From positions 2,656,001 through 2,720,000 of the forward strand of contig OZ253580.1 of NCBI GenBank assembly GCA_965263035.1: a stretch of 64,000 nucleotides of DNA, read 5' to 3'. The position numbers and the translations under genes are program-made. Source of the stretch: Acidobacteriota bacterium (lineage in GTDB: Bacteria; Acidobacteriota; UBA6911; RPQK01; JAJDTT01). This document shows, one piece after another, positions 1,055 to 63,277 of the stretch (position 1 is the stretch's first letter; each line of letters starts with the position of its first letter). The notes below the pieces were generated by a model. It worked only from the letters and a program-made list of their open reading frames with translations, ran no database searches and was not told where the DNA came from.

Positions 1055-1215
1055 CAGCCCGTGGCAAAAGTCGTCACGGCATTCGACCGTCCCTGTATCG
1101 TGCGCGGACTGCGTTGCGACTCGGTCACATACTCCCGGTGTCCTCCCTCCGTTGCGCCTTGTCCGGCGGGCACAGGAACGGTCTCGGTGCTCGCGGGACT
1201 TTCACTAACAGACTG
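1055..1215 (+). mobile_element. MITE family A, copy 1
   Basis: Ends CAGCCCGTGGCAAAAGTC / GACTTTCACTAACAGACTG, flanks TTAA/TTGA; near-identical to the copies at 7122, 17766, 45034 and 63181. Confidence 0.85.
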
Positions 1216-7121: not shown

Positions 7122-7279
7122 CAGTCCGTGGTGAAAGTCCCGCGAGCACCGAGACCGTTCCTGCGCCCGCCGGACAAGGCGCGATTCGGGAGCATACCGG
7201 GAGTATGTGACCGAATCGCAACGCAGTCCGCCGGGATGCAGGGACGGTCGAATGCCGTGACGACTTTTGCCACGGGCTG
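7122..7279 (-). mobile_element. MITE family A, copy 2
   Basis: Imperfect TIRs CAGTCCGTGGTGAAAGTC / GACTTTTGCCACGGGCTG with a perfect CCAG duplication (7118-7121, 7280-7283). Confidence 0.9.
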
Positions 7280-16764: not shown

Positions 16765-17778
16765 ATGGCTTCCGGCGAAACCATGACCTTCGCCCGGTTC
16801 ATGGAGCTTTGCCTCTATGCTCCGCAAGAAGGCTATTACCGGCGTGGATCCAAGGTCTTCGGTCCCGGCGGAGACTACTTCACCTCTCCCTATACCCACC
16901 CCCTGTTCTCCCAGATCCTGGGAGACGCTCTGGCCTGGCATCTGTCCTGTCTGGACGCGGATGGGCCTTTGGACCTCATCGAGTTGGGGGCCGGCGAGGG
17001 AATTCTGGGAAAGGGCGTGCTGGGTCGGCTGGAGAACCACCATCCCCGGATCTTCGCACGCGTCCGATACCAGGGCATGGAGATTGGAGATTCCTGCCTG
17101 CCGGAGCGAATCCATGGCGTGGTCTTCTCCAACGAACTCTTCGACGCGTTGCCGGTGCACCGGGTGCGGGTCTCTCAAACGGAATTAAAAGAGATTTTCG
17201 TCAGGTTGGGCGAGCCCATCACCGAGGTGGAGGGAGAACTCTCCGATCCGCGCATTCTGGAGTACATGCGACTCGGATTTCCCCGTTGGCGGGAGGGAGA
17301 CGTCTACGAGGCAAATCTGCGGATGGTGGAAATCCTGGAAGACCTGGACCGCCGCTTCCAACGAGGTTTTGTCCTGACCCTGGACTACGGATTCGAGGCG
17401 CCGGAATACGAGGCCATGGACCGGAGGGACGGTACGCTGCTCTGTTACCATCGCCACCGGGTCCATTCCGACCCCTATGTCAATCTGGGCCGCCAGGACC
17501 TGACCACCCATGTCAATTTTCGCGTGTTTCGCGAAACGGCCCGGCGGTTGGGTTGGACCAACCGACCGCTCCGAAGCCAGCGCCATTTCCTGATGAAATG
17601 GGGTCTGGAGACCCGGTTGCTGGAAGAGGAGAGGATGGGCATCCTGCAGGCGGAAAGATTCGAGGATCGGCTCGGAATCAAGGCCCTTCTCGCTCCCGGG
17701 GGAATCTCCGATACGCTCAAGATGCAGGTGCAGGCGGTCCGCCTCTCGCCGGCCGGCGGGTCCGGCAGTCCGTGGTGA
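16765..17778 (+). CDS. SAM-dependent methyltransferase, MidA/NDUFAF7 family
   Basis: GDYFTSP, ELGAGEG, SNELFDALP, LDYG and QDLTTHVNF motifs; the stop codon lies inside MITE copy 3. Confidence 0.9.
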   Translation: MASGETMTFARFMELCLYAPQEGYYRRGSKVFGPGGDYFTSPYTHPLFSQILGDALAWHLSCLDADGPLDLIELGAGEGILGKGVLGRLENHHPRIFARVRYQGMEIGDSCLPERIHGVVFSNELFDALPVHRVRVSQTELKEIFVRLGEPITEVEGELSDPRILEYMRLGFPRWREGDVYEANLRMVEILEDLDRRFQRGFVLTLDYGFEAPEYEAMDRRDGTLLCYHRHRVHSDPYVNLGRQDLTTHVNFRVFRETARRLGWTNRPLRSQRHFLMKWGLETRLLEEERMGILQAERFEDRLGIKALLAPGGISDTLKMQVQAVRLSPAGGSGSPW

Positions 17779-17916
17779 AAGTCCCGCGTAGGAGTCTGCG
17801 CCCGCCGGACAAGGCGCGGTGAGGGAGCATATTCGACCCTATGTGACCGAGGCGCAACGCAGTCCGCGCACGATGCAGACCCGGTCGAATGCCGCGACGA
17901 CTTTTGCCACGGGCTG
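17766..17916 (-). mobile_element. MITE family A, copy 3 (more diverged)
   Basis: Same TIRs; flanks CCGG/CCAG. Confidence 0.88.
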
Positions 17917-29162: not shown

Positions 29163-29198
29163 CCGGTCGAATGGCGCGACGACTCTTGCCACGGGCTG
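29163..29198 (-). repeat. Orphan end of MITE family A
   Basis: CCGGTCGAATGGCGCGACGACTCTTGCCACGGGCTG followed by CTAG; matches the end of copy 3; no partner end found. Confidence 0.7.
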
Positions 29199-43630: not shown

Positions 43631-44632
43631 CTACAGGAAGTCCGACGCGCAGGGGTAACCGGGAAGCGGCTCCGCCTGGAGGACCGCTCGGACCACGGCT
43701 CTGGCGGTGACGTGGGCCGCAAGAGCCCCCACCAATCCCAGGTCCTGCCCTGGAACCGATTCGGTGGAAAGGGCGAACAGGGTATCCCCGTCCGCCGGCA
43801 TGTGGACGGGACGGATGGTCCGGGCCAACCCGTCGTGGGCCATCTGAGCGATCTTGGTCAGGCCCGCCTTGTCGAACCCGGCGTTGGTGGCGACCACGCC
43901 CAAGGTCGTGTTCTCGCCCTCGCCCGGGCGCCAGGCTGGAAGTTCCCGTTCCTTCAGGACCGTCATGGTGTCGGCGAATCCGCGCCCGCCCGCGCCGCGG
44001 ACTCCCGCCAGGATTCTGCCCGTTTCCGGATCGATGACGTCGCCGACGGCATTGACCGCTACCAGAGCCGCCACCACCACAGGTCCGACCTGCACGGCCG
44101 CCGAACCCAGGCCCCCCTTCATGGCGCGTTCGTGACCCAGTATCTTGCCCAAGGTGGCCCCGGCTCCCACGCCGGCGTTGCCTTCGGGGACCGGCCCCGT
44201 CCCGGCGTCTCGGCAGGCCCGGTGTCCCAATTCGGGACCCGGGCGGATCGAGGCGTCTCCCAGCGCCAAATCGAAGAGAATGGCCGACGGCACGATGGGG
44301 ACTCTGGCCACCGACGTCCGATAGCCCACCCCCCGTTCCTCCAGGAAACGGACCACTCCGGAAGCCGCGTCCAGACCGAAAGCGCTGCCGCCGGAGAGCA
44401 CCAGGGCGTGGATGCGCTTCACCGAACGCACCGGGTCCAGCAGGGCGGTTTCACGGGTGCCGGGAGCGGAGCCGCGAATGTCCACTCCGGCCATCACTTC
44501 CCGTTCCGGCAGGACGACGGTGACCCCCGTGGGCCGCCGGGGGTCGACGGCATGCCCGACCCGTATGCCTACGAGGTCGGTCAGGCCGCCCTCGTAGGCG
44601 GCGGATCCTGATGGATACGTTTCGCTGCTCAT
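43631..44632 (-). CDS. P1 family peptidase (DmpA/S58)
   Basis: GIRVGH, RGSAPGTRET, LSGGSAFGL, ENTTLGVVATN and DGDTLF motifs. Confidence 0.9.
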   Translation of the reverse strand: MSSETYPSGSAAYEGGLTDLVGIRVGHAVDPRRPTGVTVVLPEREVMAGVDIRGSAPGTRETALLDPVRSVKRIHALVLSGGSAFGLDAASGVVRFLEERGVGYRTSVARVPIVPSAILFDLALGDASIRPGPELGHRACRDAGTGPVPEGNAGVGAGATLGKILGHERAMKGGLGSAAVQVGPVVVAALVAVNAVGDVIDPETGRILAGVRGAGGRGFADTMTVLKERELPAWRPGEGENTTLGVVATNAGFDKAGLTKIAQMAHDGLARTIRPVHMPADGDTLFALSTESVPGQDLGLVGALAAHVTARAVVRAVLQAEPLPGYPCASDFL

Positions 44633-44659
44633 GCCCGAAGTGGGTGAATGCGGGTCCTG

Positions 44660-45223
44660 AAAAGCAGGGCTGTAAGCCGAATTCTGTACCCTGGCCGCAA
44701 GGCCGGGGCGGCGATCATTCCTCTAGGGGCCGGGTTGCCCCGGCCCTCGGGCGGCCTACCCGCTCCGCCTCCGCCCTGCCCGGGGGCCGGCGAATGAGCC
44801 GGGCCAACTCGTACGGAGCCTATTTGGCCTTGCACCGCGTGGGGTTTACCGTGCCTTCGATGTCACCATCAAAGCGGTGGGCTCTTACCCCACCATTTCA
44901 CCCTTACCCGCAGTCCCGACGACGGAACCGAAGGCGGTATCTTTTCTGTGGCACTTTCCGTAGGGTTACCCCCCCTTCCCGTTAGGAAGCACGCTGCCCT
45001 GAGGTGTTCGGACTTTCCTCCGCCCGGCGTTAGCAGCCCGTGGCAAAAGTCGTCACGGCATTCGACCGTCCCTGCATCGTGCGCGGACTGCGTTGCGACT
45101 CGGTCACATACTCCCGGTATGCTCCCTCATCGTGCCTGGTCCGGCGGGCGCAGAACCGGTCTCGGTGCTCGCGGGACTTTCACCACGGACTGCTAGCCGG
45201 AAGGCGATCGCCCACCCTGCTTC
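44660..45223 (-). ncRNA. rnpB: RNase P RNA, bacterial type A, carrying a MITE insertion in P3
   Basis: Minus strand has GAGGAAAGTCCG, GGAAAGTGCCACAGAAA, GGTAAGGGTGAAA, GGTAAACCCCA and ACAGAATTCGGCTTAC; P1 (AAGCAGGG/CCCTGCTT) and P2 (GGCGATC/GATCGCC) pair across the insert. Confidence 0.95.
45034..45192 (+). mobile_element. MITE family A, copy 4 (inside rnpB)
   Basis: CAGCCCGTGGCAAAAGTC...GACTTTCACCACGGACTG, flanks TTAG/CTAG. Confidence 0.92.
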
Positions 45224-45325
45224 TCAGGCCGACGACATTCTATCACCGGAAGCTCAGGTGGAACCGATTTCACGCGGTCGCCCCGACGTGCCCGCCGGTA
45301 CATATCCCGCGAGACGAGCAAGCGC

Positions 45326-46213
45326 TTACCGAGAGCGAATCAGGCCCCGGCCCACGGCGCCCGCTTCCAGTCCGATGAGCTCGCCGTAGACCCGGCCGAA
45401 CTTGACCTGGGCCTCGAACTTGACGGGAACTCGAAGCGGGTCCCGGGAGTACCAGACCTGCAGCGTCCTCCCCTGGGAGAGGATTCCCCCCTCGACTCGG
45501 AGCCGAACGGTGTCGAAAGCCCCGATCCGGAGTTCGACTTTCTCCCGCTCCTCCACCCGGACCAGAAGCTCCTTGAACTTGCCGCGGTCGGCCAGGTGCG
45601 CACGGTACCGGCTCGCGTCCTCCAGCCGCTGGAGCCTGACCACGTAGACGGCCGAGATCAGGTCGGTGACCGGCCCCGGAATCCCATCTGAGGTGCGGTT
45701 GTGAAGCTCCCGCGGCGGATCCCTGGACACATCCAGATCGCGGTAGAGCGCGATGTTCCTGCGGTAGTCGAAGACGGAGAGCAGATCGCGCCTGCGTTTC
45801 CCTTCGCGGTGCTTTCGGAAGATCCGATAGGAATGGAAATTCCGGGCGTCGACAATGGACTCGAAACGATTTCGCACCGAAATCTTGGCGACTTTCGCCA
45901 GCCTGCCTGCCGAGACGGCCTCCATGGTAATGGTCCAGGCCGGCCTCTTGCGATACCGGGAACGCTTCACGGTGAAGGCCAACTCTCCGGCCTTGAAAGC
46001 CGGAGAGGCGAACAGGGGCTTCCAGTTGACCTCGTATCGCAGCTTCTCTCCGGCCTGGAAGGGAGCTCTGTAGGGAGTGCTTCCATCCAGTAGAGGTCGC
46101 GCCGTCTCGGACCCGGCCGGAAGCGAGAAACAAAAAAAAGCGGTCGTGAGTGGGACGAGAACGGCCCGCAAACGGCTTACCCACTGCCAGGGGGCGAGCA
46201 TTCCGCGCCTCAT
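45326..46213 (-). CDS. DUF3108 domain protein
   Basis: PFQAGEKLRYEVNW...DLISAVY...WYSRDPLRVPVK pattern; signal peptide. Confidence 0.75.
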   Translation of the reverse strand: MRRGMLAPWQWVSRLRAVLVPLTTAFFCFSLPAGSETARPLLDGSTPYRAPFQAGEKLRYEVNWKPLFASPAFKAGELAFTVKRSRYRKRPAWTITMEAVSAGRLAKVAKISVRNRFESIVDARNFHSYRIFRKHREGKRRRDLLSVFDYRRNIALYRDLDVSRDPPRELHNRTSDGIPGPVTDLISAVYVVRLQRLEDASRYRAHLADRGKFKELLVRVEEREKVELRIGAFDTVRLRVEGGILSQGRTLQVWYSRDPLRVPVKFEAQVKFGRVYGELIGLEAGAVGRGLIRSR

Positions 46214-63180: not shown

Positions 63181-63277
63181 CAGCCCGTGGCAAAAGTCAT
63201 CACGGCATTCGACCGTTCCTGCATCCCGGCGGGCGCAGGAACGGTCTCGGTGCTCGCGGGACTTTCACCACGGACTG
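63181..63277 (+). mobile_element. MITE family A, copy 5 (97-bp short form) between rpsH and rplF
   Basis: Same TIRs; lacks the 61-nt central segment bounded by CCGGCGG in copy 2. Confidence 0.9.

Follow-up and report, generated by a model that had tools for sequence, protein, structure and literature searches.

A MITE seems tolerated in the P3 loop of the only RNase P RNA gene of an Acidobacteriota bacterium

How does the only gene for an essential ribozyme come to carry a mobile element, and can such a gene still work? The question is raised by an RNase P RNA gene (rnpB) in the window analysed here, a stretch of 64,000 nucleotides from the genome of an Acidobacteriota bacterium (G000). Lineages differ in how long the outer helices of their RNase P RNA are, and the causes are rarely traceable. 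In this gene a MITE seems, as far as the sequence can tell, to be tolerated in the only copy encoding the essential RNA. We consider the following explanation as a whole to be highly probable. A non-autonomous element of 159 nt, MITE-A, would have inserted into a CTAR tetranucleotide in the apical loop of P3 of the sole rnpB, in an ancestor common to G000 and at least three sister species. In the folded transcript the element would form an independent hairpin of ~57 bp, stacked on P3, while P1, P2, P4 and the rest stay intact, and the gene would remain a working rnpB, transcribed with its insert. Three sisters would later have lost nearly the whole element, while both target copies and 5 nt stayed behind as a 4-bp extension of P3.

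On the minus strand the gene reads ...GATCGCCTTCCGGCTAG-[45192..45034]-CTAACGCCGGGCGGAGGAAAGTCCG, exactly as it was quoted when the locus was first read from its letters, without database searches (the sequence-only reading). The Rfam model RF00010 matches it at 262.9 bits (E 1.3e-84), above the gathering score of 100. The extent given below agrees with the 44660-45223 and ~560 nt proposed in that reading. The parts of the gene are as follows.

44657..45223, minus strand: rnpB for class A RNase P RNA; with the insert counted, 567 nt; RF00010 match of 262.9 bits, 5′ end placed by alignment
45197..45223, minus strand: 5′ strands of P1 (GAAGCAGGG), P2 and P3 (CCUUCCGG), which the insert separates from the core and cmscan does not pick up
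45193..45196, minus strand: left copy of the target-site duplication, CTAG, from the sequence and a genome-wide comparison of flanks
45034..45192, minus strand: MITE-A copy in rnpB, 159 nt, with terminal inverted repeats CAGTCCGTGG.../...CCACGGGCTG
45030..45033, minus strand: right copy of the target-site duplication, CTAA, with one mismatch to the left copy
45020..45029, minus strand: 3′ strand of P3 (CGCCGGGCGG), followed by the conserved P4 strand GAGGAAAGUCCG; placed by Rfam, genus alignment and fold

The P1/P2/P3 5′ strands terminate in CCTTCCGG-CTAG, and the text resumes after the insert with CTAA-CGCCGGGCGG and then the universal GAGGAAAGTCCG. Both strands of P4, GAGGAAAGUCCG and ACAGAAnnCGGCUUA, align to the RF00010 model, and the genus alignment shows every core segment of rnpB to be conserved with relatives, which bears out the earlier statement that the core motifs are intact. 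The P1/P2 5′ strand (45223-45205) is constant in the genus and pairs with the 3′ end in the minimum free energy (MFE) fold, closing the molecule; over its whole length, 45197..45223 is predicted to pair with the 3′ end of rnpB and with 45020-45029.

The cmscan alignment of the gene begins at 45078, within the insert. At this point the element contains GAUGCAGGGaCGGUCG, which mimics the P1/P2 strand; more broadly, its segment 45057-45078 (minus strand) reads GATGCAGGGACGGTCGAATGCC and is similar to the P1/P2 5′ strand of rnpB. The true 5′ strand, 45223-45197, shows no variation in 9 of 9 genus genomes (alignment A1), and in a relative with an empty site the same strand is aligned to model position 1, with a score of 297.9 bits. 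The start at 45078 is therefore an artefact. Relatives score 291-298 bits against 262.9 bits for the insert-bearing gene, and the deficit of ~30 bits follows from the forced misalignment of the 5′ end. An alignment to the Rfam model with and without the insert was a check suggested by the sequence-only reading; the insert-bearing gene and the relative with an empty site both match. Annotation pipelines would report a truncated rnpB here, since the 5′ end from the Rfam scan is off by 145 nt and lies inside the element. The same similarity means that GATGCAGGGACGGTCGAATGCC could in principle compete for the 3′ strand of P1. Scans for expression signals returned no terminator-like site on either strand of 44400-45500 and no sigma-70-like site in the promoter scan for rnpB. 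By eye, a candidate TGaTAGAAT lies ~10 nt upstream of the mature 5′ end.

The insert belongs to a large family. A blastn search of the whole genome with the 159 nt yields 190 HSPs in total, among them 163 copies of at least 140 nt with a median identity of 93% and sizes of 158-161 nt. When these 163 copies are aligned with 25-nt flanks, conservation begins and ends sharply at CAGTCCGTGG and CCACGGGCTG. The inverted repeat is 18 bp long (CAGTCCGTGGTGAAAGTC pairs with GACTTTTGCCACGGGCTG), and the ends are at least 90% conserved across copies. Target duplications were scored in the 140 of 163 copies in which both ends are recognised by motif. Flanking 4-mers are identical in 70 of these 140 and flanking 5-mers in none, which defines a 4-bp NTAN duplication; the commonest targets are TTAA (22), CTAG (7) and ATAT (6). 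The mismatched pair CTAG/CTAA seen at rnpB occurs in 2 of the 140 copies. With four differences from the family consensus, the rnpB copy ranks 10th of 163; its identity to the consensus is 97.5%, where the median copy has 93.7%. All nine genus genomes contain the family, and an Rfam search with just the element returned nothing at E up to 1.

The match of the insert to this family is far beyond chance. Inverted repeats, a duplication of fixed 4-bp length and many dispersed small copies without a transposase gene make the inserted stretch a MITE, and excising it with one target copy restores the hairpin CCGG-CTAR-CGCCGG. The central claim of the sequence-only reading, a tolerated 159-bp MITE in the P3 loop of an essential ribozyme gene, forming a self-contained arm, is supported by the large family, the single rnpB copy, the predicted fold, empty sites in relatives and contigs of independent runs across the junction (below). 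One detail changes: the target copy is 4 bp (CTAG/CTAA) rather than the shorter one implied there, and the restored P3 loop is the same. The window holds further members of the family.

1055..1215, minus strand: MITE-A copy, 91% identical to the rnpB copy, 42 nt from a tRNA-Lys gene
7122..7279, plus strand: MITE-A copy, 94% identical to the rnpB copy
17766..17916, plus strand: MITE-A copy that has diverged to 84% identity; a tRNA-Val gene lies 67 nt away
29164-29198: solo MITE-A end, 35 nt
63181..63277, minus strand: internally deleted MITE-A copy, 97 nt, both ends kept

Three copies, including one at genome positions 2801415-2801574, lie 12-67 nt from tRNA genes (Lys, Val and Leu), all on the downstream side. 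An enrichment near tRNA genes is unconvincing, with 3 of 163 copies within 150 nt against 0.93 expected at random (maximum 4).

The tip of P3 is solvent-exposed in bacterial RNase P. In the MFE fold of 569 nt (45225-44657), P1, P2 and P3 all form, and the insert pairs only with itself, in 57 pairs, and not with the core. The base of the predicted arm consists of 21 unbroken pairs, 18 from the inverted repeat and three from the target copies, followed by a 2-nt bulge and then six pairs of P3. Folded alone, the insert reaches -83.6 kcal/mol. Two features lead one to expect a self-contained arm: the nearly perfect palindromic sequence of the element and a loop that faces away from the catalytic core. 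The predicted fold agrees with the earlier proposal that the insert extends P3 as such an arm. We infer that the 567-nt RNA is catalytically active.

We then turn to the same position in related genomes. RF00010 matches in 40 of the 41 genomes searched, a tally that includes G000 and the unpublished G016. Within the genus, rnpB is 404 nt long in G001, G003, G004 and G008, 413 nt in G002, G006 and G007, and 566 nt in G005. The genus alignment of nine genomes shows three states of the P3 loop. It is occupied in G000. It is empty, with a 4-nt loop (CCGG-CAGA/CAGC-CGCCGG), in G001, G003, G004, G005 and G008, so that the empty sites sought as a check on the insertion do exist. The third state is a remnant, which reads CCGG-CTAG-CATTG-CTAA-CGCCGG in G006 (locus L059) and G007 (L065) and CCGG-CTAG-CAGTG-CTGA-CGCCGG in G002 (L063).

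In the remnant, both target copies survive around five bases of the element, the three with which it begins (CAG) and the two with which it ends (TG), and the helix is extended by 9 nt. By our own arithmetic, a 5-nt match of this kind would arise by chance in ~6 of 1024 cases if any split between the two ends is allowed. In the predicted fold of the remnant, P3 gains four pairs, has a bulged AC and ends in a 3-nt loop; where G002 has G instead of A, pairing is maintained as U-G. The mismatched pair CTAG/CTAA is common to G000, G006 and G007. A fresh duplication should be perfect, yet the mismatch is shared, which favours a single ancestral insertion.

A tree of all nine rows, none dropped, was built from 1374 of 1768 columns. 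It places G000, G002, G006 and G007 on one side of a branch with support of 70/87, a value not marked as well supported. The opposite group of G001, G004, G005 and G008 has 94/93, and G003 sits on a long branch. Within the first group G000 stands next to G002 at only 62/59; if this placement is true, two losses are needed. We infer one ancestral insertion followed by loss. The manner of loss may have been a one-off palindrome deletion rather than excision by a transposase, because the remnant type is absent elsewhere in G000: among 473 sites with a 5-mer between identical flanks, none reads NTAN-CAGTG/CACTG/CATTG/CAATG-NTAN. A stereotyped excision footprint was accordingly set aside, as no other CAGTG-type remnant occurs in G000.

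A second member of the genus carries a different MITE in the same gene. In G005 (L062, 626-789, minus strand of the locus) an element of ~160-164 nt with ends CTAG-GAGTCTGCGCGG, flanked by GCCGGCC and GGGGCC, caps the long P16/P17 arm, and the P3 loop is empty. The element has at least 40 scored copies in G005 at 97-100% identity and is also found in G000, G001 and G007. With other copies 100% identical, the family looks recently active in G005. The G005 gene aligns end to end to the Rfam model at 291 bits, the insert being treated as an insertion, and the predicted fold of the insert has 63 internal pairs and none with the core. The ends of this element are similar to those of two IS groups in G000 that start with CTAGGAG.

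Independent sequencing runs bear on both the assembly and the transcription of the locus. The run search listed 24 runs, of which 20 contain the stretch or part of it and 16 contain half or more of the sampled words; these runs with matching sequence belong to 10 studies. Four of the 24 (X1, X3, X15 and X17) were compared, as contigs only. In X3, for which the RNA label is only a guess, a contig spanning 44969-45098 reads across the junction without differences, 65 nt lying to either side of it. A further X3 contig, 45069-45188, also has no differences, and its 120-nt stretch is unique in G000, which assigns it to the rnpB copy. X15, a metatranscriptomic RNA-Seq run labelled sponge metagenome, contributes a contig at 44969-45060 with no differences. 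X1, whose library kind is not on record, has two such contigs. One runs from unique sequence of the rnpB core as far as 45058; the other runs from 45168 into upstream flanking sequence that is likewise unique. Both include 25 nt of the element without differences. Under a bridging rule of 31 letters on either side, only the X3 contig qualifies, as X15 and X1 reach 25-27 nt into the insert. X17 covers only conserved parts of the core, stopping at 45030, and generic MITE parts, and is uninformative for this organism.

In both X3 and X15 rnpB is covered and depth is 0 in both flanks, so the signal fits RNA rather than contaminating DNA. The RNA-library contigs show that the insert is transcribed together with the rnpB core. 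At the 5′ junction (45192/45193) the RNA runs compared have no bridging contig. An exact 22-nt junction pattern has no match in genome_contigs or metagenome_contigs, collections from which records of this genome itself may be excluded.

Could the arrangement be an assembly artefact, a repeat copy misplaced into rnpB? A family of 163 near-identical copies is the type of repeat that misleads assemblers, and the sequence-only reading had named repeat mis-assembly among the findings that would refute it. We regard the chance of this as practically negligible. In contigs of three other runs (X1, X3 and X15), which belong to different studies, the element is continuous with unique rnpB sequence at one or both of its ends, the internal 120 nt of the insert are a copy-specific variant recovered in X3, and sister genomes have the duplicated target and a remnant at exactly the same position. 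Almost as improbable is that the insertion disables rnpB and that RNase P activity comes from elsewhere. The sole hint of this is the score of 262.9 bits, ~30 bits below relatives, and this gap is accounted for by the forced 5′ misalignment. The genome is a single contig of 6,198,070 bp with 97% completeness, and rnpB is its sole RF00010 match, so that the second copy that had been considered earlier is not there. The rnpA gene is retained (94 bits). PIN_5 (Pfam), which we take to be the family of HARP-type protein-only RNase P, has no match in G000, while a control gave matches in four genomes. The conservation of every core segment, together with RNA-library contigs that span rnpB and stop short of its flanks, likewise argues for a gene that works.

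The remaining alternatives concern the history of the element and the fate of its arm. A recent, independent insertion in G000, with the remnants of G002, G006 and G007 dating from a different, earlier insertion into this CTAR loop, would explain why the rnpB copy is so near the consensus; this nearness, and the absence of the remnant type elsewhere in G000, count against an old insertion. Repeated hits do occur, as the second MITE family in G005 shows. Such a history nevertheless requires three events rather than two, and the CTAG/CTAA mismatch, a pair present in so few copies of the family, must arise twice. Nor does MITE-A show a general preference for hairpin tips, which could have turned the loop into a hot spot. 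We judge separate insertions to be unlikely, and prefer the single ancestral insertion with later loss. A variant of this explanation, rather than its opposite, is that RNase III or another endonuclease cuts the arm after transcription. RNase P RNA would then consist of a 5′ piece of ~30-50 nt and a 3′ piece of ~380-400 nt, joined by P1, P2 and the base of P3. The predicted 21 unbroken pairs and six P3 pairs at a helix tip form a double-stranded stem of sufficient length for cleavage, an RNase III gene is present (131 bits), and a precedent exists in Thermodesulfatator indicus, where a P12 expansion segment is lost in vivo (PMC9945441). Depth in X3 is 3-4.7 in the insert contigs against 11.7 in the core, although contig depth is a poor measure. 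On the other side, contigs from RNA or RNA-like libraries extend from the core 27-65 nt into the insert, which means that at least some molecules are uncut on the 3′ strand, and the X3 contigs span nearly the whole rnpB-specific insert. We think cutting of the arm the less probable fate.

Short palindromic non-autonomous elements with target duplications are known as Correia/NEMIS in Neisseria and RPE in Rickettsia, where they form hairpins within transcripts. They have been described in mRNAs, intergenic regions and protein-coding frames, whereas MITE-A here lies in rnpB. Within rnpB itself, Vioque (1997, Nucleic Acids Res 25:3471) reportedly found STRR repeats in heterocyst-forming cyanobacteria. 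These STRR are short tandem heptamer-type repeats located in P12; unlike MITE-A, they have neither the inverted repeats nor the target duplication of a transposon. We know of no series of empty, occupied and remnant states for STRR in rnpB.

In T. indicus, the excision of the P12 expansion segment in vivo leaves a functional fragmented RNA (PMC9945441). In both cases a peripheral helix of a class A RNase P RNA ends in a large additional arm that is transcribed with the gene and, presumably also in G000, compatible with function. The T. indicus arm lies on P12 in the specificity domain, and the consulted parts of that paper describe no mobile element, whereas here the arm lies on P3 in the catalytic domain and comes from a 163-member MITE (PMC9945441). 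Intervening sequences (IVSs) in helices 25 and 45 of bacterial 23S rRNA, for example in Coxiella burnetii, are comparable (PMC4990558). They are selfish or foreign hairpins inserted at helix tips of an essential structural RNA, where exposure to solvent makes them tolerable. IVSs are removed by RNase III, which leaves the rRNA fragmented; the host RNA of MITE-A differs in being a ribozyme encoded by a single gene copy. Our literature search, for which most subscription journals were outside scope and which included passages of PMC4683814 and PMC5771137, returned no paper on a MITE in rnpB. Within the same scope it likewise returned no RPE insertion in Rickettsia rnpB, the precedent on which the sequence-only reading had drawn.

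The case at hand thus joins the repeat-derived or expansion segments already known from RNase P RNA, and its distinctive feature is a bona fide MITE in P3 of the catalytic domain. What is new is the presence of empty, occupied and scar states in one genus, together with a second independent hit in G005. The genus displays length change in outer helices directly, with a MITE in P3, a scar that amounts to four base pairs of P3 and a second MITE at P16/P17. It serves as a natural experiment on the amount of added RNA that the catalytic domain can accommodate at P3, and as an example of mobile DNA seeding expansion segments in structured RNAs. A broader proposal, which we put forward tentatively and hold to be rather doubtful, is that the arm is excised in vivo to give an RNase P RNA split at P3, and that MITE insertion with near-complete loss is a general route by which peripheral helices grow.

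Why P3? Targeting of hairpin tips by MITE-A was rejected, as flank complementarity averages 0.65 consecutive pairs against 0.80 in 500 shuffles. The likeliest account is survivorship, in which an essential single-copy RNA would keep only those insertions that fall on NTAN at a helix tip.

An autonomous element with MITE-A ends was not found in G000. Orphan 18-nt MITE-A ends, considered as marks of a partner, pair up only around glyA: at 4377177-4378647 of contig C1 (L161), two inverted orphan ends flank this gene, a 416-aa serine hydroxymethyltransferase ORF. A search with 12-nt ends and matching 4-bp flanks returned one element of 1,595 bp, which is MITE-A with 1.4 kb of non-transposase cargo. 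In this element (C1, 4822717-4824311; L162, 201-1795) the MITE-A halves lie ~1.4 kb apart around small ORFs of 144-145 aa, with TTAA on both flanks; this could be a cargo-carrying MITE or else the product of a nested insertion. Multi-copy DDE IS groups were also rejected as partners, the ends of eight groups (10 representatives examined) being unlike MITE-A. That the target choice of MITE-A is IS5- or IS1182-like is only a guess. The genome is very rich in IS elements, with 70 DDE_Tnp_1 matches and several groups of 5-15 copies, many of which end at CTAG. A further motif, NTAN-GATCATTT-NTAN, occurs 73 times in G000 and its complement 61 times, which points to a further family of short repeats.
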